DNA from: Saprospiraceae bacterium
Lineage (GTDB): Bacteria > Bacteroidota > Bacteroidia > Chitinophagales > Saprospiraceae
Direction: 5' to 3'
Assembly: GCA_044347755.1 (NCBI GenBank)
Contig: JBIKUE010000009.1
Location: 1,933-65,932, forward strand
DNA length: 64,000 nt
Shown here: positions 5,693 through 28,243 of the stretch, piece by piece
Layout of the letters: each line of letters begins with the position of its first letter
How positions within the stretch are numbered: position 1 is the first letter of the stretch
The notes under the pieces: generated by a model
Seen by the model: the letters and a program-made list of their open reading frames with translations, nothing else
What the model was told of the DNA's origin: nothing
Database searches by the model: none
Program-made: the position numbers and the translations under genes

Positions 5693-5819
5693 GGGAGATG
5701 AGTTAGGAGAGATGAGTTAGGAGAGATGAGTTAGGAGAGATGAGATATGATTTGGGCTCGGGTAATTGATCCATTTTACTAACCCGAGCCCAAATCATAT
5801 CTCATCTCTCCTAACTCAT
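5693..5819. repeat. intergenic word-repeat palindrome, likely a bidirectional terminator between convergent genes
   Basis: A 14-nt word gagatgagttagga is repeated 3x. A 38-nt inverted repeat follows (about 5726-5763 vs 5782-5819) around the core tttgggctcgggt...acccgagcccaaa. The right arm overlaps the stop codon of the minus-strand gene. Confidence 0.8.
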
Positions 5820-7312
5820 ATCCCATAACTCCCCACCGCTTCCATAAAGGCGCCGGATTTGATTTTAGTTTCGCGGAGTTCGTTTTCCGGCACGGATTCA
5901 TAGAGAAGGGTGGCGCCAGCGGAGAAAGAAAGCAGTCCATCTCGCACGTGGGCTGTTCGGATGGTGATGGCGGTATTCACATCCCCATTGAATAATAACC
6001 AGCCAATGCTGCCGCCGTAATACCCACGCGTATGTTGTTCAATCTCTTCAATGTACTGCATAGCGGCAATTTTGGGGGCGCCGGTGAGTGTGCCGGCATT
6101 CAGGCTGGCAATCAGCGCATCAAACCCTGAATAACGCGCCTGGAGCGTACCGCTCAATTGCGCCACAGTATGCGTTACGTGCGAATATTTCTCTACAATA
6201 CGGTAGTGTTCAATATCAATGCCCGGTTGGCAGATGCGCGCCAGGTCGTTGCGCCCAAGATCAATGAGCATATCCAGTTCCGAGTTCTCTTTGGGATCGT
6301 TGAGCAACTGCATCATCAGGCGATGATCTTCCATAGGATCCTGCGAGCGCCTGATAGAACCTGAAATGGGGCGTAAAGTAGCCCGTCCGTTCTCATAACG
6401 CAACATCAGCTCCGGACTGGCTCCTAGCAGGGTTTCATTCCCAAAATCAAAATAAAAAAGGTACGGAGAGGGGTTAATAGCCTTATAGCGGGCATACAAG
6501 GGCAGCAAATCGCCACTTACCGGAGCGGTGAGTTTCCGGCTGAGTACGATTTCCAAAAGTTCGCCTTCATGGCATAACTGAATGCCTCGTTGCACCTGCC
6601 TGCGAAATGTTTCATCATCCGGCGTAGCCACAAATTTCCCTATCTGCAGCGCCTCATCTGCGCCTCCCTGGGAAGGCACTGCGGGCGCTGCATGACACGG
6701 GTCTGTGTTTGATTTGGATAAAAACGCCTTGAGGTCCTGCTCAGCTGCCGGTTCATCGGCACGCGTGATGTACACCGTCAAATCAAGCGTTAAATGATTG
6801 AATAGCAGGATATTATCGAAAAGAAATAAATGAAAATCCGGTTCCGGACATGGCTTGGAATACGGCAAATCCTCAAACTGATACACAAACTGATATGCCA
6901 GCGCTCCGTACAGACCCATGAAGTTTTTGTCGGACATTTTGAAATGCGCCAACATGCTGCGCAATGGCTGTACAATGTTTTGTCGCTCCAGACGATCATC
7001 CTCCGCTCCGTGGAATGGAAGTTTTGGAATGTGCAACAACAGCCGGCCCTCCCGCTCACTTTCCACAAAAAGGGCAAATGTTTTTTTCAAAAAATCATAA
7101 AACACTTCTCCCCTGGCATCCAGCAAACGAATATCCAGGTGATCGTCTTTGCCGATCAATTCCAGTGTAGGCTCAAAACCTATAATCGAAAGCCTGCTGG
7201 ACTTGTCTACGGTAGAAGCTGACTCAAACAGGCAGGTAGGACCATTCCCTTTCAGTTGGCGGTACAACGAAAGGGCGTCGGCATATGGAAGTCGGGCGGT
7301 TGCAGTGTGCAT
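5816..7312 (-). CDS. chorismate-binding enzyme, anthranilate/aminodeoxychorismate synthase component I family
   Basis: ORF 5816..7393 trimmed to the ATG at comp. 7312 (MHTATARLPY...). Family motifs LFESAS, GTLTGAPK and RGYYGGSIGW...NTAITIRTA are present. No glutamine amidotransferase partner is adjacent, so TrpE vs PabB is unresolved. Confidence 0.85.
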   Translation of the reverse strand: MHTATARLPYADALSLYRQLKGNGPTCLFESASTVDKSSRLSIIGFEPTLELIGKDDHLDIRLLDARGEVFYDFLKKTFALFVESEREGRLLLHIPKLPFHGAEDDRLERQNIVQPLRSMLAHFKMSDKNFMGLYGALAYQFVYQFEDLPYSKPCPEPDFHLFLFDNILLFNHLTLDLTVYITRADEPAAEQDLKAFLSKSNTDPCHAAPAVPSQGGADEALQIGKFVATPDDETFRRQVQRGIQLCHEGELLEIVLSRKLTAPVSGDLLPLYARYKAINPSPYLFYFDFGNETLLGASPELMLRYENGRATLRPISGSIRRSQDPMEDHRLMMQLLNDPKENSELDMLIDLGRNDLARICQPGIDIEHYRIVEKYSHVTHTVAQLSGTLQARYSGFDALIASLNAGTLTGAPKIAAMQYIEEIEQHTRGYYGGSIGWLLFNGDVNTAITIRTAHVRDGLLSFSAGATLLYESVPENELRETKIKSGAFMEAVGSYGI

Positions 7313-20821: not shown

Positions 20822-20855
20822 GCGGGGTTTCAAAGCCCACGCTCTGAAACCCCGC
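20822..20855 (-). terminator. stem-loop followed by a T-run after the toxin-immunity operon (copy A)
   Basis: On the minus strand the sequence reads gcggggtttca-loop-tgaaaccccgc followed by ttttcgg. It lies 12 nt after the stop at 20867. Confidence 0.6.
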
Positions 20856-20866
20856 ATGACAATCCC

Positions 20867-21592
20867 TTAGTTATTATAAGCCGCTGCAGCCTCCTGCATT
20901 TTGGCTTTTTTCTCTTCAGGCGTTAATTCTCCAAGCTCCTCTGTTGGCGTAAACCTTATACCAACTAAACCCTCCTTTTCGATGGCATCTTTTAGCCGCT
21001 CTGAAACATAAAAGCCGGATGGCATAAAAATGAGTCGAAACATGTCGGTGCCTTCAGCTGCCTTGGAAATCTTGAGGACTCTGACATACAGGTTTTCTTT
21101 TTTGAAGAAAAGAGCATTTTTTAAGGATCTGAATTCCTCGTAGCTACTGAATTTCAAGCCCATTTTAATTACCTGGACAGCAAAATCAGTAGTATGCATC
21201 ACCTCAGTGTGTTCCCAGTCTACAAACTCGGCTGCACTGTTTTTGGTAAAATAGAGCAGAAAGTATGCCCGCTCTTCTTCTGCTTGTCTCACTGTCACCG
21301 GAAAGGCTTGATGATCAGCCAATTTGAATTTTGAAAGTAGGAAATAGAACCGACTACTTATGAGCAGGAACCCACCACCTCCTGGAGTAAAAGAGAACAA
21401 ATCTATCCATCTGGCTTCCTTTTCTAACAAAAGCACCGGAAACTTTTTGTTCGGATCAAGCTTCCCCTCCAGAGGAATGGATTGAAACGGGTGACCTTCT
21501 CCGGTTTCAGGGTTATGTACAAATTTTCGAACCTGCCCATCGATTCCAATTTCTTTCAAGTCCAGGGAAAACGTGATTTTATAAAAGTTCAT
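20867..21592 (-). CDS. orphan immunity-like protein, Imm11/DUF1629-like; paralogue of 25193..25921
   Basis: 241 aa, clearly homologous to the ORF that directly follows the AHH toxin in copy B. The C-terminal pattern DMFRLIFMPSGFYVSERLKDAIEKEGLVGIRF resembles Imm11. It is preceded by a remnant of the AHH toxin 3' end. Confidence 0.6.
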   Translation of the reverse strand: MNFYKITFSLDLKEIGIDGQVRKFVHNPETGEGHPFQSIPLEGKLDPNKKFPVLLLEKEARWIDLFSFTPGGGGFLLISSRFYFLLSKFKLADHQAFPVTVRQAEEERAYFLLYFTKNSAAEFVDWEHTEVMHTTDFAVQVIKMGLKFSSYEEFRSLKNALFFKKENLYVRVLKISKAAEGTDMFRLIFMPSGFYVSERLKDAIEKEGLVGIRFTPTEELGELTPEEKKAKMQEAAAAYNN

Positions 21593-21596
21593 GGCA

Positions 21597-21686
21597 TTAG
21601 AAATTCAAATCGTTGATTTTTGTGGTCGGGTTTTGATCAATCAAATTGCCCAGCTGGTTTTGAAAATCACGCAATCGCTGACTTGC
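21597..21686 (-). pseudogene. remnant of the 3' end of an AHH-type toxin gene (last 30 codons plus stop)
   Basis: The reverse complement translates to ASQRLRDFQNQLGNLIDQNPTTKINDLNF*. This is identical in protein to residues 578-607 of the copy-B toxin, with a few synonymous differences. Homology ends abruptly at 21686. Confidence 0.75.
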
Positions 21687-21692
21687 TATTCT

Positions 21693-21739
21693 GCCGCGCT
21701 TGGGTCTTCCCGATGAAGTCGGGAAGACCCAAGCGCGGC
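21693..21739 (-). terminator. perfect 21-bp stem / 5-nt loop hairpin at the cassette junction
   Basis: gccgcgcttgggtcttcccga (21693-21713) pairs perfectly with tcgggaagacccaagcgcggc (21719-21739). It lies 20 nt downstream of the 212-aa ORF stop and 6 nt from the toxin remnant. There is no T-run. Confidence 0.55.
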
Positions 21740-21759
21740 GAACGAAACGAAACGCCCGA

Positions 21760-22398
21760 TTATCTTATATCGTCCAGTATGCTCAGGTTCAAACCTGCGG
21801 CAATAAATTCATCACTCACGATCATCTCTTCCGGTGTTTCCGGATGATCAAATAATACCCGGAAATGCCCCTCTCCCTCAGCAAAAATGTACACCCACTT
21901 GCCATTCTCAAAATGGAATCCGATAATATCAAGGGTCTTTTTGTTGATATGAATGACATCTGGCAACTCGGCATTGGGCGGAAAAAAGCAGGCAATTTCT
22001 TCCCTTCGTGAGGCGGTTTCTATTGTTTCTACCCGTACCTCACCCATCCCGACAATTCGTTGAACCGCTCCGTGATCTCCTTGAATGCAGAAATGATATC
22101 CCAGTTTTTTTAAGGTGTCCCTGCTGCTTACTTCCACATTCAGGAGGTTAGCTTCTATACCATACAAATTGCCGGCAACATTTTGCGTGCCTTTGGAATG
22201 AATTTCCAGCCTCATCGGTTTTTCCGGACGGGGGCGTTTGAATATCAGTAATAACGGGCAAAAGTGGCTGTATAATTCAAGCGGTTGTGACAGACCCAAA
22301 AAGCCATCTGGAACAAAAACCGTAAAGCCCTTTGTTCCGAGAGCATCCCGGAACAAAGGGTTAATGTTACACTCAAAGTCGATGTGAAGTTCTGACAT
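21760..22398 (-). CDS. putative cognate immunity protein for toxin A (no recognised family)
   Basis: 212-aa ORF. Its ATG overlaps the toxin stop (TGATG, 1-nt overlap), which suggests translational coupling. There is no signal peptide. The immunity role is inferred from position only. Confidence 0.55.
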   Translation of the reverse strand: MSELHIDFECNINPLFRDALGTKGFTVFVPDGFLGLSQPLELYSHFCPLLLIFKRPRPEKPMRLEIHSKGTQNVAGNLYGIEANLLNVEVSSRDTLKKLGYHFCIQGDHGAVQRIVGMGEVRVETIETASRREEIACFFPPNAELPDVIHINKKTLDIIGFHFENGKWVYIFAEGEGHFRVLFDHPETPEEMIVSDEFIAAGLNLSILDDIR

Positions 22399-24239
22399 CA
22401 GAATCGCATTTTAAATTCGAAAGAACCTTTTTTAATGGCAATGGTGGGTTCGCCAGATGAGGTAGATTCAAGGTAGAACCTCATAGTGTAGTTGTTTCCT
22501 CCAAGATTGAATTCTGCAGTTATCTCATTTCCGTTGTTCCCAGAACTAATGTTATCAGGATCAATCTCAAAAGCTTCTACCAGGTCATCCCAAACATCAA
22601 GCGGCCCAAGCCCGTTAACCTTTGCCCCATTTCCAGTCCACTCAATCTTGGCGTAAAGATCATCAATTTTATTTCTTAAAACCTGATAGACCCTGTATGC
22701 AACATCATCGCCAAGCGTATATACTTTCTTCATTACATCATAAAACTTCATCAGGCTCGTTGCCTTTTTACCCAAACTGACTCCAAATGAAGCCACTTTC
22801 GCTATCGGAACAAAGGTGCCTGCTTCATCCAGTGCAATTTCTGCAGCAGTCCATATTGCGCCAAGGTAATCTCCGCTTTTTAACTGGTCAATTGCTGCTG
22901 GGCCAAGCGTGATAATTGTACCACCCGGTATAATGTCTATTAAGGCATCCTTTAACGCTAGTTCAAGCTGCTCAATGATAATATCCCAAACAGGGTTACT
23001 GATTGAATTGCTCTGAGCGTCTTGAAAAAACTGTTGAACTTCAACTGATCCAGAAGAAAGCATTTGGATATAACTTACCACAACTGCTGCCGCTAAGTTG
23101 GCATCATGCTGGTTAGCATTGTGGCTCTGCAGGAACGATAAACACTCTCCAATTCGACCTGAATTACTTACCAACCAATTTAACTGCGCAGCATTAAATT
23201 GGCAGTCATTTATCAGTTGTACCAGCAATTCTGCAGCGTCTTTGGATGCTGCATCCCCTCCATTAAATGTTATGAAGGACCCAATTTCGTCAAATAAAGC
23301 CTGATCGTTTAGCAGCAGTGTTTTTTCGGCGGCAGTAAGATCAAACCAGTCATCTACGATCACCTCTTTGGTACATTGAGACAGGCCGCTGTTAAACGCA
23401 TCGTACCATTCGGGTCCGTCATAAGAGGAAAAACCACAAGTGTTTTTGATCTGCTCCATCAAATCGATCGGATGCTGCTCCAGGAAGAATTTATCCTTGA
23501 GCAAATGGGTCAAAAGGATTGCGAACGAGCCGTTGCATTTACCATTAATATAGGCTTTTAGCTTGTCGGCGGTTGCAATGTCCTTAGGACTGGCATCCCA
23601 ATATTTGATGATCTCCTCCTGCTGTGGATGGCCATATTGTGTGAACAGGCACATGGATTCTGCCCCGTTCAAACCAGCCTCATTGACAAGCATACAAAAA
23701 TCCAGATCTGTCTGACTATAGCCGGGTGGAATCTCTCCAATCGAGAGAATGTATTCATTGATGGCAGCACAGGTTGCCATCTGGCCGGAAAACTGCTGGT
23801 CAAAAATGCCTCCTCCGCCAGGTTGTTGGTAACCTTCCGGCGTAGTCCATCCCAATTGCCCTCCCGGGAAAAAATAGGATCCGGAATATGATTCGGAGCT
23901 GCCATTGATGGCATCCCAGATATTGCCGGCAACGGTACCGAAGTCTTTCCAAAATTCATTCCACCAACCCCAATCAATATTAATATTGTTGCTTCCAAAT
24001 TGAGGACACCTTACCTTCGGCTTGCCATCTCTGTCGGATGACGTTGAATCAGTTTGCGCAAATCCGGAGGAGATATCCCAAAACGGAATTTTACCGTCTC
24101 CTTTCAGAGCAATGTAGCCGTTAACCACCTTCACAAACTTTTCAATGGTATCTTCCTGGCTTACCAGCATCATAGTACCATTGAACTGACCGGTAGCATC
24201 CAAAGAGGAAAGAACGTGGACAGAGAGTCGGCTGCCCAT
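22398..24239 (-). CDS. polymorphic toxin A: shared 343-aa N-terminal region plus unique 270-aa C-terminus of unknown activity
   Basis: 613 aa. Residues 1-343 equal those of copy B except for 2 substitutions. Sequences diverge completely after ...AELLVQLI (nt ~23210). The C-terminal part has a PT-TG-like linker (DIIPGGTIITLGPAAIDQLKSGDYLGAIW) and then ~125 aa that I cannot assign. Confidence 0.7.
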   Translation of the reverse strand: MGSRLSVHVLSSLDATGQFNGTMMLVSQEDTIEKFVKVVNGYIALKGDGKIPFWDISSGFAQTDSTSSDRDGKPKVRCPQFGSNNINIDWGWWNEFWKDFGTVAGNIWDAINGSSESYSGSYFFPGGQLGWTTPEGYQQPGGGGIFDQQFSGQMATCAAINEYILSIGEIPPGYSQTDLDFCMLVNEAGLNGAESMCLFTQYGHPQQEEIIKYWDASPKDIATADKLKAYINGKCNGSFAILLTHLLKDKFFLEQHPIDLMEQIKNTCGFSSYDGPEWYDAFNSGLSQCTKEVIVDDWFDLTAAEKTLLLNDQALFDEIGSFITFNGGDAASKDAAELLVQLINDCQFNAAQLNWLVSNSGRIGECLSFLQSHNANQHDANLAAAVVVSYIQMLSSGSVEVQQFFQDAQSNSISNPVWDIIIEQLELALKDALIDIIPGGTIITLGPAAIDQLKSGDYLGAIWTAAEIALDEAGTFVPIAKVASFGVSLGKKATSLMKFYDVMKKVYTLGDDVAYRVYQVLRNKIDDLYAKIEWTGNGAKVNGLGPLDVWDDLVEAFEIDPDNISSGNNGNEITAEFNLGGNNYTMRFYLESTSSGEPTIAIKKGSFEFKMRF

Positions 24240-24613
24240 AAAACCAGTTTACTTTGAATTTGTCCGGCCGGGTCTTTATAAAAAGCCAGGCTACTCCCAA
24301 ATCGGGTGCCCGGAAGTGAGGCAGGAGTATCAACAGGCGTGATAAGTACCGGAAAGCCAGAAGGTGTTACAATATAGGATTCGTTCCAGAGGGGCGTTAC
24401 ACATAGTGGCAGCTTGTCTTCTGACCGGTCGAGAGCCCCTCCTCCATTTGAAAACCGGCCTTTTACTTCTTCCAATGAAATGGAGCGGTTGACCAGTTCA
24501 TTGGCTGGCTCACTCAACGGAATTTCTTGTAGTTCCTTTCTACATCCGCCTGCAAAAACTAAAGTAAGTAATACAATAACAGGCCACGCTGTGGCAAATT
24601 TGAATTGAATCAT
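24170..24613 (-). CDS. small lipoprotein ORF overlapping the toxin A start by 70 nt (possibly the original N-terminus of the toxin)
   Basis: 147 aa. MIQFKFATAWPVIVLLTLVFAGGC is a signal peptide plus lipobox. It ends 70 nt inside the toxin ORF in another frame. The frame junction is at a T4 run (ctggttttatggg). Confidence 0.6.
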   Translation of the reverse strand: MIQFKFATAWPVIVLLTLVFAGGCRKELQEIPLSEPANELVNRSISLEEVKGRFSNGGGALDRSEDKLPLCVTPLWNESYIVTPSGFPVLITPVDTPASLPGTRFGSSLAFYKDPAGQIQSKLVLWAADSLSTFFPLWMLPVSSMVL

Positions 24614-24782
24614 CTTGAAGGTTGTGTTTTGACGGTCTTCAGTTGTCCTTGCCTCGCGCGCCGGTGGGGATTTCTGATTACGTCAGGTTAAAAATTACTG
24701 TTGTTATTAATTGGATGCACAAATATGCGTGGCTCCCTCTCTAAAAAAATATAACACTTTTTGGCACTTATTCCCCACCAAC

Positions 24783-24893
24783 AGAATGGAGCGGGGCATT
24801 ATCAATGCCGGCTTAAGTCAATTATTCAAAATAGCCGAAGCGCTGGAAATTCACCCAAAGGAATTGTTTGATTTTGACCTGGAGGAGGATTAG
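24783..24893 (+). pseudogene. truncated XRE-family regulator remnant (C-terminal half only)
   Basis: Only RMERGIINAGLSQLFKIAEALEIHPKELFDFDLEED matches the intact copy at 28292..28531. The upstream part of ORF 24711..24893 is unrelated and lacks the first HTH helices. Confidence 0.7.
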
Positions 24894-25021: not shown

Positions 25022-25192
25022 ATATCAAATCACGGTTTGGCCTTAAAAGTGGCCAAGCTTTTTACGGCAGAGTAAGAGGCTAAAAGTGATAATCCATTTG
25101 TGTTATGTGAAGGAAACTACACTTAATTACCCCTAAACCTTAAAGTTTTTACCTTTCAGAGTCTACTCTCTGAAACCCCGCATGACAATCCC

Positions 25193-25921
25193 TTAGTTAT
25201 TATAAGCCGCTGCAGCTTCCTGCATTTTGGCTTTTTTCTCTTCCGGTGTTAATTCTCCAAGCTCCTCTGTTGGCGTAAACCTTATACCAACTAAACCTTC
25301 CTTTTGGATGGCATCTTTTAGCCGCTCTGAAACATAAAAGCCGGATGGCATAAAAACAAACTTGAACATGTCGGTACCTTCAGCTGCCTTGGCGATCTTG
25401 AGGACTCTAACATACAGGTTTTCTTTATTGTGTAGCAATTCCATTTTTCTGGCCAAAAACTCCTCATAGCTACTGAATTTCAAGCCCATTTTAATTACCT
25501 GGGCAGCAAAATCAGTAGTATGCATCACCTCAGTGTGTTCCCAATCTACAAACTCGGCTGCACAGTTTTTGGTAAAATAGAGCAGAAAGTATGCCCGCTC
25601 TTCCTCTCCTTGTCTCACTGTCACCGGGAAAGCTTGATAATCATCCAAATTGAATTGGCTCAACAGCATATAAAAACGACTGCTTATTAGAAGCAGACGC
25701 CCTGATCCGGGAACTTGTTCAAGCAGATCCGTCCATTTTGCAGCCTTTTCTAACAAAAGCACCGGAAACTTTTTGTTCGGATCAAGCTTACCCTCCAGAG
25801 GAATGGATTGAAAGGGGTGACCTTCTCTGGTTTCAGGGCTTTGTACAAATTTCTGAACTTGGTCATAAATTCCAATGACCTTCGGATCCAAAGAAAGTGC
25901 AAGTCTGAAAAACTTCATCAT
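25193..25921 (-). CDS. putative immunity protein for the AHH toxin, Imm11/DUF1629-like
   Basis: 242 aa. The start lies 1 nt after the toxin B stop. The C-terminal pattern DMFKFVFMPSGFYVSERLKDAIQKEGLVGIRF resembles Imm11, which is the usual neighbour of AHH/HNH toxins. Confidence 0.65.
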   Translation of the reverse strand: MMKFFRLALSLDPKVIGIYDQVQKFVQSPETREGHPFQSIPLEGKLDPNKKFPVLLLEKAAKWTDLLEQVPGSGRLLLISSRFYMLLSQFNLDDYQAFPVTVRQGEEERAYFLLYFTKNCAAEFVDWEHTEVMHTTDFAAQVIKMGLKFSSYEEFLARKMELLHNKENLYVRVLKIAKAAEGTDMFKFVFMPSGFYVSERLKDAIQKEGLVGIRFTPTEELGELTPEEKKAKMQEAAAAYNN

Positions 25922-25922
25922 A

Positions 25923-27746
25923 TTAGAAATTCAAATCGTTGATTTTTGTGGTGGGGTTTTGATCAATCAAATTTCCCAGCTGGTTTTGAAAATCACGCAA
26001 TCGCTGACTTGCAACATCTGGAGGAATATTATTAAGCCCTCCATATTGAGTTTCTAATTGACTCAAAATCTCATTCAAATTTATTCGGACTTTTTCATTA
26101 TATTGCGGATGATTTCCATGAACACCATCCTGTTGATCGAAACGGAACCGTTTTAACTCTCTTCCATTTTTTGGGTGGTTCATGTGAAAAGGGGTGTTAT
26201 TAGCCTTCGCCGCAAGTTGTACCAACTCGTGATCTTGTCTTGACCAAGGAATCAAATGATGCGCATCATTCGCTGCATCGGTAATTTCCATTACCTCTCT
26301 CAAACCTGTTCTTTCACCAAAGGTAATAAGTCCTCCATCATTTGTCAACTTCAATAAATGCTGAACGCCTGTAGATGCCTTTTTTACTGCGACATGTGCA
26401 TATTTACCGCCTGTAGATATCCATCCAGCGATTGGAAGGGTTGCTGCAAAGCTCAGGGATGCATTCAGCGGATCACCCTCGATTATGAATAGTACACCAT
26501 TGGTCAGATCACATGGCTCGCCAACTACAGGCAGAAGCCCACAAATGTCAAGAGCAATATGTAATTCATACATTACCTCTTTTACTGCCTGGAGAAAAAT
26601 GGTGTCCATATCCCAAGATGGATGTAAAATCTTCAACCATGCCATCTTCATAATCAACTGGACAAATACACCCGGAGGAAAATCCTCCTCCTTGAACGAT
26701 GGGTATTTACCTTGTGCAATTAGCTGTACCAGCAACTCCGCAGCGTCTTTGGATGCTGCATCCCCTCCATTAGAAGTTATGAAGGACCCAATTTTGTCAA
26801 ATAAAGCCTGATCATTCAGCAGTAGTGTTTTTTCGGCGGCAGTAAGATCAAACCAGTCATCTACGATCACCTCTTTGGTACACTGAGACAGACCACTGTT
26901 AAAAGCATCGTACCATTCGGGTCCGTCATAAGAGGAAAAGCCACAAGTGTTTTTGATCTGCTCCATCAAATCGATCGGATGCTGCTCCAGGAAGAATTTA
27001 TCCTTGAGCAAATGGGTCAAAAGGATTGCGAACGAGCCGTTGCATTTACCATTAATATAGGCTTTTAGCTTGTCGGCGGTTGCAATGTCCTTAGGACTGG
27101 CATCCCAATATTTGATGATCTCCTCCTGCTGTGGATGGCCATATTGTGTGAACAGGCACATGGATTCTGCCCCGTTCAAACCAGCCTCATTGACAAGCAT
27201 ACAAAAATCCAGATCTGTCTGACTATAGCCGGGTGGAATCTCTCCAATCGAGAGAATGTATTCATTGATGGCAGCACAGGTTGCCATCTGGCCGGAAAAC
27301 TGCTGGTCAAAAATGCCTCCTCCGCCAGGTTGTTGGTAACCTTCCGGCGTAGTCCATCCCAATTGCCCTCCCGGGAAAAAATAGGATCCGGAATATGATT
27401 CGGAGCTGCCATTGATGGCATCCCAGATATTGCCGGCAACGGTACCGAAGTCTTTCCAAAATTCATTCCACCAACCCCAATCAATATTAATATTGTTGCT
27501 TCCAAATTGAGGACACCTTACCTTCGGCTTGCCATCTCTGTCGGATGACGTTGAATCAGTTTGCGCAAATCCGGAGGAGATATCCCAAAACGGAATTTTA
27601 CCGTCTCCTTTCAGAGCAATGTAGCCGTTAACCACCTTCACAAACTTTTCAATGGTATCTTCCTGGCTTACCAGCATCATAGTACCATTGAACTGACCGG
27701 TAGCATCCAAAGAGGAAAGAACGTGGACAGAGAGTCGGCTGCCCAT
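25923..27746 (-). CDS. polymorphic toxin B: shared 343-aa N-terminal region plus C-terminal AHH-type HNH/EndoVII nuclease domain
   Basis: 607 aa. The C-terminus reads DAHHLIPWSRQDHELVQLAAKANNTPFHMNHPKNGRELKRF...DGVHGNHPQYNEKV, which fits the AHH family pattern (AHHxIP ... N..NG..L ... HxGxHxxYN). It is preceded by a PT-TG-like linker LLPVVGEPCDLTNGVLFIIEGDPLNA. Confidence 0.75.
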   Translation of the reverse strand: MGSRLSVHVLSSLDATGQFNGTMMLVSQEDTIEKFVKVVNGYIALKGDGKIPFWDISSGFAQTDSTSSDRDGKPKVRCPQFGSNNINIDWGWWNEFWKDFGTVAGNIWDAINGSSESYSGSYFFPGGQLGWTTPEGYQQPGGGGIFDQQFSGQMATCAAINEYILSIGEIPPGYSQTDLDFCMLVNEAGLNGAESMCLFTQYGHPQQEEIIKYWDASPKDIATADKLKAYINGKCNGSFAILLTHLLKDKFFLEQHPIDLMEQIKNTCGFSSYDGPEWYDAFNSGLSQCTKEVIVDDWFDLTAAEKTLLLNDQALFDKIGSFITSNGGDAASKDAAELLVQLIAQGKYPSFKEEDFPPGVFVQLIMKMAWLKILHPSWDMDTIFLQAVKEVMYELHIALDICGLLPVVGEPCDLTNGVLFIIEGDPLNASLSFAATLPIAGWISTGGKYAHVAVKKASTGVQHLLKLTNDGGLITFGERTGLREVMEITDAANDAHHLIPWSRQDHELVQLAAKANNTPFHMNHPKNGRELKRFRFDQQDGVHGNHPQYNEKVRINLNEILSQLETQYGGLNNIPPDVASQRLRDFQNQLGNLIDQNPTTKINDLNF

Positions 27747-28120
27747 AAAACCAGTTTACTTTGAATTTGTCCGGCCGGGTCTTTATAAAAAGCCAGGCTA
27801 CTCCCAAATCGGGTGCCCGGAAGTGAGGCAGGAGTATCAACAGGCGTGATAAGTACCGGAAAGCCAGAAGGTGTTACAATATAGGATTCGTTCCAGAGGG
27901 GCGTTACACATAGTGGCAGCTTGTCTTCTGACCGGTCGAGAGCCCCTCCTCCATTTGAAAACCGGCCTTTTACTTCTTCCAATGAAATGGAGCGGTTGAC
28001 CAGTTCATTGGCTGGCTCACTCAACGGAATTTCCTGTAGTTCCTTTCTACATCCGCCTGCAAAAACTAAAGTGAGTAATGCAATAACAGGCCACGCTGTG
28101 GCAATTTTGAATTGAATCAT
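27677..28120 (-). CDS. small lipoprotein ORF overlapping the toxin B start by 70 nt (paralogue of 24170..24613)
   Basis: 147 aa. It differs from the copy-A ORF at 2 residues (F6I, V14A) and has the same LVFAGGC lipobox and the same overlap geometry. Confidence 0.6.
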   Translation of the reverse strand: MIQFKIATAWPVIALLTLVFAGGCRKELQEIPLSEPANELVNRSISLEEVKGRFSNGGGALDRSEDKLPLCVTPLWNESYIVTPSGFPVLITPVDTPASLPGTRFGSSLAFYKDPAGQIQSKLVLWAADSLSTFFPLWMLPVSSMVL

Positions 28121-28243
28121 CTTGAAGTTTGTGTTTTGACGGTTTTCAGTTGTCCTTGCCTCGCGCGCCGGTGGGGATTTCCGTTGCCGTCGGGTTATTA
28201 AAATTGATAATTAGAACAAATATAGAGGCTCGGATCAAATTTG

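Follow-up and report, generated by a model that had tools for sequence, protein, structure and literature searches.

A predicted toxin/immunity cassette at a polymorphic lipoprotein toxin locus of a Saprospiraceae bacterium

The window analyzed here is a 64,000-nt stretch of a Saprospiraceae bacterium genome (GenBank assembly GCA_044347755.1, contig JBIKUE010000009.1, positions 1,933 to 65,932), and it carries two related toxin modules, which we call A and B. Our subject is the C-terminal part of the module A toxin gene, a 613-aa open reading frame (ORF), together with the 212-aa ORF that follows it; the two share one base in a TGATG overlap, the toxin ending in TTC TGA and its partner beginning with ATG TCA (Table 1). 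The region of interest starts at residue 344 of the 613-aa ORF, which begins at nt 23210. Module B lies upstream of module A and consists of a 607-aa ORF (27746..25923) and a 242-aa ORF; by Pfam its toxin ends in an AHH domain (PF14412, E = 1.2e-07) and its downstream protein is an Imm11 (PF07791, E = 1.6e-09), so that it serves as a reference for reading module A. The ORFs and the overlap given in the preliminary description of this DNA are real: their coordinates were confirmed, homologues of both genes exist elsewhere, and dN/dS is 0.14-0.155.

Table 1. Features of modules A and B, in coordinates of the window.
Feature	Position	Strand	Basis or remark
613-aa ORF, module A toxin gene	24239..22398	-	ORF list
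212-aa ORF, candidate immunity gene	22398..21760	-	ORF list; start overlaps toxin stop
Constant toxin head (ORF residues 1-343), common to module B	23211..24239	-	98.1% DNA identity
Helical pre-toxin region (residues 344-478), in the swapped cassette	22806..23210	-	Diverges from module B at residue 344
Alpha+beta toxin domain (ORF residues 479-613; 607-741 of the intact protein)	22401..22805	-	AlphaFold2 model, alignments
Hairpin, perfect 21-bp stem, 5-nt loop	21693..21739	-	Predicted -51.8 kcal/mol, z = -9.3
30-codon remnant of displaced AHH toxin 3' end	21597..21686	-	blastn; toxin B ORF ends at 25923
Orphan Imm11 immunity gene, left by displacement	20867..21592	-	Pfam Imm11 E = 1.9e-08; paralogue of module B Imm11
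147-aa ORF, detached toxin N-terminus with lipoprotein-type signal (…LVFAGGC-RKE)	24170..24613	-	Fused in frame in P0002, L010, P0111
10-nt deletion site in module A (CAACGTGTGC in intact alleles)	24205..24206	-	DNA alignments with L010, L001, L022, L024
Module B, comparison reference: same head, AHH nuclease C-terminus, Imm11 gene	25193..27746	-	Pfam

The two toxins are identical at 341 of 343 positions over residues 1-343 and unrelated from residue 344 on. At the DNA level they part at 23211/23212, and homology is regained at 21686: blastn aligns the modules in only two flanking blocks (A 23212-24696 with B 26719-28205 at 98.1% identity, and A 20828-21686 with B 25154-26012 at 86.3% identity). 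Because the alignment is confined to these flanks, we read 21687-23211 as an inserted toxin/immunity cassette that took the place of the AHH toxin end, of which only the last 30 codons survive. The cassette comprises the coding sequence of the 270-aa C-terminal region, the 212-aa partner gene and, right at the 3' recombination junction, a perfect hairpin of 21 bp with no U-tract after it. Beyond the junction, the AHH remnant is followed by an orphan Imm11 gene.

The converse arrangement is found elsewhere. At one locus (L025), a toxin with another C-terminus and its own small partner is followed by a 22-codon remnant of the toxin described here ("...LESTSSGEPTIAIKKGSFEFKMRF*"), the stop of which overlaps the ATG of an intact orphan 212-aa partner that is 80% identical to ours; at another (L028), a 50-codon remnant of the toxin stands beside an intact 210-aa orphan partner. 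Going by these sequence arrangements, the cassette both displaces others and is itself displaced, and since the partner is retained after the toxin has been lost, it behaves as would be expected of an immunity gene. Displacement of C-termini that leaves remnants and orphan immunity genes is described for polymorphic toxin systems, where Imm11 is reported as the immunity protein to AHH (PMC3482391). The window, with its AHH remnant and orphan Imm11, and the loci L025 and L028 show this same pattern, and a constant head bearing alternative C-termini is seen both in the divergence of modules A and B after residue 343 and in the many heads of the wider family.

This family is of some size. Searching by word index turned up 11 relatives of residues 344-613 (41-100% identity), and a profile search of 1.84 billion representative proteins found 95 at E<=1e-3 (35 of them at E<=1e-30), each being the representative of a 50% identity cluster. 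In nearly all 95 the match reaches the C-terminus of the protein or stops within about 25 residues of it, and when the 61 longest are clustered by BLAST on their N-terminal parts, 24 clusters result, i.e., at least 24 different heads. The pre-toxin region is conserved alongside the toxin domain in most relatives, but the alpha+beta domain is the part most widely kept, some relatives matching only at profile positions 160-278. Among 67 full-length relatives, Pfam (E<=0.001) recognized no delivery domain, apart from one protein with leucine-rich and SprB repeats, and none of the heads is a recognized Rhs, type VI secretion system (T6SS) or contact-dependent inhibition (CDI) scaffold. The idea in the preliminary description that the domain might be joined to other delivery heads is therefore borne out as to different heads and fails as to those three named scaffolds; since no such scaffold is recognized, the domain moves only among lipoprotein toxins of a single lineage-specific class. 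The named genomes that carry it are metagenome-assembled genomes (MAGs) of Saprospiraceae and Lewinellaceae. It is present in one of 301 genomes sampled across the class (the window's own) and in six of 401 sampled across the order, and tblastn against the PLSDB plasmids gave no match for either the toxin region or the 212-aa protein.

Where the toxin is at least 40% identical, a homologue of the partner follows at seven loci (L001, L002, L003/L004, L005, L006, L010, L011); it lies directly 3' of the toxin at 32-88% identity in L001, L002, L003/L004, L010 and L011, and is more divergent in L005 and L006. The downstream gene thus varies together with the C-terminus, at these seven loci as in the window, where the two were swapped as one; distant subfamilies of the toxin have partners of like size with no detectable relation to the 212-aa protein. 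Compared with L001 and L010 (87-89% identity), both the toxin region and the partner give the dN/dS of 0.14-0.155 mentioned above, a mark of purifying selection which, with the homologues elsewhere, makes both genes more than chance ORFs. In the Lewinellaceae MAG (L011:3975-5854), the tblastn match to the toxin end runs to 5854 and the ORF ends at 5735, the partner gene (5861-6514) being intact; this interruption is probably a frameshift, stemming either from a long-read assembly error or from a pseudogene.

The 613-aa ORF, which had been taken for the whole toxin, proved to be the downstream part of a 741-aa lipoprotein. In P0002 and L010 the toxin is a single continuous protein of more than 710 aa, of which the window's 147-aa ORF is the N-terminus, and near-identical intact alleles of both modules occur at the same locus on metagenome contigs (P0111, 741 aa, and P0128, 735 aa, in L022/L023). 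A 10-nt deletion splits these 741- and 735-aa lipoproteins into a 147-aa piece and a 613- or 607-aa piece, respectively, module B lacking the same 10 nt (CAACGTGTGC) at 27712/27713. The exact 147-aa product is found on 27 contigs, so that the deletion allele is a common one and not a single assembly error; deletion and intact alleles are both common in metagenomes. A programmed frameshift and a homopolymer error were also considered as causes of the 147/613 split and were rejected, the cause being a 10-nt deletion whose split products occur on many independent contigs. With the lipoprotein signal cut off by the deletion, the toxins of the window have probably lost their export signal and are probably not exported in this genome, their immunity genes being intact; the deletion allele may leave its bearer disarmed but still immune.

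A lipobox-like Cys is present in 31 of 59 full-length relatives, and it is commonly followed by C-x-K-D, counting from the Cys itself, with Lys at +3 in 25 of the 31 and Asp or Glu at +4 in 24. The window (24613-24540) and P0111 both read C-R-K-E-L-Q-E from this Cys. The motif is partly similar to the Bacteroidetes lipoprotein export signal (LES), which is K-(D/E)2 or Q-A-(D/E)2 after the lipobox Cys (PMC5080379).

Neither protein could be placed in a described family. Pfam (E<=1), NCBIfam, PADLOC and PHROGs gave no family for the C-terminal region or the 212-aa partner, and Pfam at E<=1 on 44 toxin-domain pieces returned scattered single matches only. Searches of PDB sequences with single sequences and three profiles, covering toxin and partner, found nothing below E = 0.2, and we found no description of this family in the literature on lipoprotein toxins of Bacteroidota. 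When AHH/HNH-EndoVII (PF14412) was tried on the two modules, only module B matched, and the module A family has no conserved His; with the Imm11 and Imm43 models, the 241- and 242-aa ORFs matched and the 212-aa protein matched neither. The preliminary description had seen no catalytic motif that could be named and no signal peptide on the 212-aa ORF, and both points hold: no HNH/AHH, deaminase or ADP-ribosyltransferase model was matched in Pfam, NCBIfam or PADLOC, and inspection of the partner shows neither a signal peptide nor a transmembrane segment. Its "PT-TG-like linker" did not fare as well. The 613-aa protein has no Pfam match at E<=1 and PF14449 is found in none of the 67 relatives at E<=0.001; as no hidden Markov model supports the label, it reflects a loose resemblance only.

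The AlphaFold2 (AF2) model of the 270-aa region (predicted local distance difference test, pLDDT, 84.6; predicted TM-score, pTM, 0.76; one of five models confident) is helical as far as about residue 164 of the modeled piece, after which comes an alpha+beta domain, in which two helices, a hairpin and a further helix lead into a five-stranded antiparallel sheet (five to seven strands counted overall). The pre-toxin residues 344-478 are all-helical in the model, contain a Gly/Ala-rich stretch (DIIPGGTIITLGPAAIDQLKSGDYLGAIW) and may be an entry or translocation module. In alignments of 77 and of 44 sequences, only Tyr589, Lys610 and Arg612 are near-invariant in the toxin domain (at least 84-95% conserved), the protein ending in K-x-R-F; several Lys and structural Gly, Pro, Trp and Phe residues are also conserved, and neither alignment shows a family-wide constellation of His, Cys, Asp or Glu. 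The 212-aa protein is modeled as mostly beta (pLDDT 85.9, pTM 0.83). In Foldseek searches of the PDB, the best match to the toxin model was at E 0.19, with no RNase among the matches, and the partner model had nothing better than about 0.2; for the toxin, BFVD likewise offered nothing better than about 0.2. The fold check proposed earlier has thus matched no known fold for either protein, and, as far as these searches and models can tell, toxin domain and partner belong to no described family and have no fold relative.

Taken together, it is quite probable that the pair forms a toxin/immunity cassette within a polymorphic toxin locus of Saprospiraceae-like Bacteroidota, with the 212-aa protein as the cognate immunity protein. 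The earlier suggestion of a new toxin/immunity domain pair is supported, at the level of sequence, by all the comparisons made: the cassette swap, the co-occurrence of the partner, the at least 24 heads, the remnants with their orphans and the lack of any family match. The intact protein would be a 741-aa lipoprotein composed of a signal peptide with its lipobox Cys, an N-terminal head, a Gly-rich linker, helical repeats and an exchangeable 270-aa end, this end being made up of the helical pre-toxin region and a toxin domain of about 135 aa with an alpha+beta fold, from a previously undescribed family. It would be exported by Sec/Lol and exposed at the surface, C-x-K-D after the lipid-modified Cys resembling an export signal, and would reach neighboring cells by contact or in outer-membrane vesicles (OMVs), where the helical region would aid entry. 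In the cytoplasm of the producer, the 212-aa protein is predicted to bind the toxin domain; having no signal peptide, it should act there, and a cytoplasmic immunity protein in turn points to a cytoplasmic target for the toxin. The conserved Tyr, Lys and Arg suggest a phosphate-bearing substrate, and this the alpha+beta domain would attack, RNA being the most likely one. A metal-independent, RNase-like activity at a Tyr/Lys/Arg site, with RNA as the likeliest substrate, is the best single guess but a tentative one, less likely than not; that the alpha+beta domain represents a new fold with a new activity (Tyr/Lys/Arg, and none of the usual acid/base residues or metal ligands), delivered by a Bacteroidota-specific surface-lipoprotein/OMV route that needs no secretion machine and countered by a new immunity fold in the 212-aa protein, strikes us as more doubtful still.

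Several observations weigh against this account of the pair. The toxin domain shows no catalytic motif, and Foldseek found no fold relative for it in the PDB or BFVD (all E > 0.1); the fold itself is uncertain, since only one of five AF2 models was confident. The domain is acidic (isoelectric point, pI, 5.2). Many nuclease toxins are basic. In two distant subfamilies of the toxin (L012/L014 and L013) the gene downstream encodes 214-218 aa; compared with the 212-aa protein as possible homologues, these products showed no similarity that could be detected. Both toxin genes of the window are split, so that in this genome the pair may not function as a weapon. Finally, the family motif usually has one acidic residue after the lipobox Cys where the published LES has two.

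The main alternative to an RNase-like activity is a membrane-active helical region. The killing part would then be the hydrophobic, Gly/Ala-rich helical region (about residues 430-500), acting as a membrane pore or ionophore, with the alpha+beta end left to targeting or to docking of the immunity protein. The helical segment IIPGGTIITLGPAAI...YLGAIWTAAEIAL...GTFVPIAKVASFGVSLG is indeed amphipathic, hydrophobic and well conserved (G456 94%, P478 90%), and the alpha+beta domain lacks family-wide acid/base catalytic residues. Nevertheless, the alpha+beta domain is what the family retains most widely, module B has a comparable region ahead of a soluble AHH nuclease, and the 212-aa partner has neither a signal peptide nor a transmembrane segment, whereas immunity to membrane-acting toxins is normally conferred by proteins of the membrane or periplasm. 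We regard a pore or ionophore as improbable.

Other roles for the two genes are much less probable again. Translational coupling to the toxin gene would also suit a 212-aa protein that serves this C-terminal domain specifically, as chaperone, adaptor or export helper, but the gene holds the position that Imm11 has in the paralogous module, it was swapped along with the C-terminus and not with the head, and an intact orphan partner beside toxin remnants of 22-50 codons fits protection rather than help with export; such a helper is hardly to be expected. Equally remote is the notion that the variable C-terminus is a surface recognition or adhesion domain of the lipoprotein and that the downstream gene has nothing to do with it functionally. 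The missing catalytic motif and known fold, the acidic pI and the surface lipoprotein context would all agree with it, yet on this head the C-terminus took the place of a bona fide AHH nuclease and arrived together with a downstream gene of its own, and arrays of remnants plus orphans are the signature of toxin/immunity displacement described in PMC3482391. A toxin with its cognate immunity protein accounts best for the locus in our judgment.

The surroundings of these genes vary as well. In one haplotype (L024:1-4265), module A (741 aa + 212 aa) comes immediately after the gene for the E2 component of a 2-oxoacid dehydrogenase, and module B is missing; the A/B tandem arrangement is therefore polymorphic, probably by way of recombination between the heads, which are 98% identical. 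A 60-aa XRE-like ORF (window 24711-24893) lies just upstream of module A, and a small XRE/helix-turn-helix gene is repeatedly found close before such lipoprotein toxin genes at loci whose genomic surroundings are otherwise unrelated (L002:976-1215, L005:5642-5887, L006:5222-5662); it may be a dedicated regulator of them. Further lipoprotein toxins, of 646 and 741 aa and with C-termini that have no Pfam match, are encoded at L025:2443-10248 and L001:8695-10920, where they are trailed by arrays of small genes (111, 212, 246, 77, 121, 175 aa and others) that probably represent more uncharacterized toxin ends and orphan immunity genes.

Polymorphic toxin/immunity loci are a kind of system already known, and what is new here are the families: an uncharacterized toxin domain family and an immunity family are added to the catalogue of interbacterial weapons, the former having some 95 clusters at the 50% level of identity and no occurrence in this analysis outside Saprospiraceae/Lewinellaceae-like Bacteroidota. 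The locus also documents a lipid-anchored class of polymorphic toxins, with no associated secretion system, in Bacteroidota of environmental and wastewater type. Together with its relatives it displays the life cycle of a cassette, from insertion to remnant and orphan immunity gene and to tandem duplication, and including a population polymorphism by which both toxins are disarmed and the immunity genes preserved. Should the domain turn out to be another RNase or DNase, the finding would be routine; interest would rise if the activity or the delivery route proved to be new, and a new activity could make the domain a possible tool or target.

Module B itself offers a close comparison: it shares the head (99% identical) and the gene order, and couples toxin and partner just as tightly; C-terminus and partner are unrelated in sequence, module A having no AHH/HNH motif and its partner being neither Imm11 nor Imm43. 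Set beside RelE/BECR metal-independent RNases, the toxin domain is alike in chemistry and general layout only, with helices on a small antiparallel sheet and with conserved Tyr, Lys and Arg, not His, Asp or Glu, near the C-terminus; the order of secondary structures differs, sequence and profile searches gave no match, and neither did Foldseek against the PDB, a weak test in that the toxin model (one of five confident) is only moderately reliable.

The general plan of the locus is that of the polymorphic toxin systems (Zhang, Aravind et al. 2012, PMC3482391), which likewise have a constant N-terminus, a variable C-terminal toxin and an immunity gene immediately 3', and likewise leave displaced remnants and orphan immunity genes. 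Within that catalogue, it is most like the lineage-specific Sec-exported classes with lipobox or anchor domains (MafB-N/MafA, Microscilla-N, Amoebophilus APD1/APD2), sharing with these classes a lipobox-type N-terminus, an occurrence in Bacteroidota and the lack of a dedicated secretion machine nearby. It differs in that none of the Pfam models stemming from the catalogue matches the head, the 270-aa region or the 212-aa partner, and that no PT-TG, RHS, HINT or other processing domain was detected in it. Outside the Bacteroidota, the SitA/SitI proteins of myxobacteria are lipoprotein polymorphic toxins whose C-terminal domains are nucleases and whose delivery depends on TraA/B outer-membrane exchange (Vassallo et al. 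2017, PMC5562445). Both systems pair a lipoprotein-anchored polymorphic toxin with a cognate cytoplasmic immunity gene, as predicted here from sequence, and SitA C-terminal domains act inside the recipient, as we suppose those described here would. The two belong to different phyla, however, with no detected sequence relationship; our locus has no SitB-like accessory gene and gives no evidence of a TraA/B-type exchange, its lipoprotein-type signal being seen in the intact allele P0111. It is thus with SitA/SitI (PMC5562445), and with MafB/MafA, Microscilla-N and APD1/2 (PMC3482391), that we would place the closest functional analogues of this lipoprotein toxin and its small partner.

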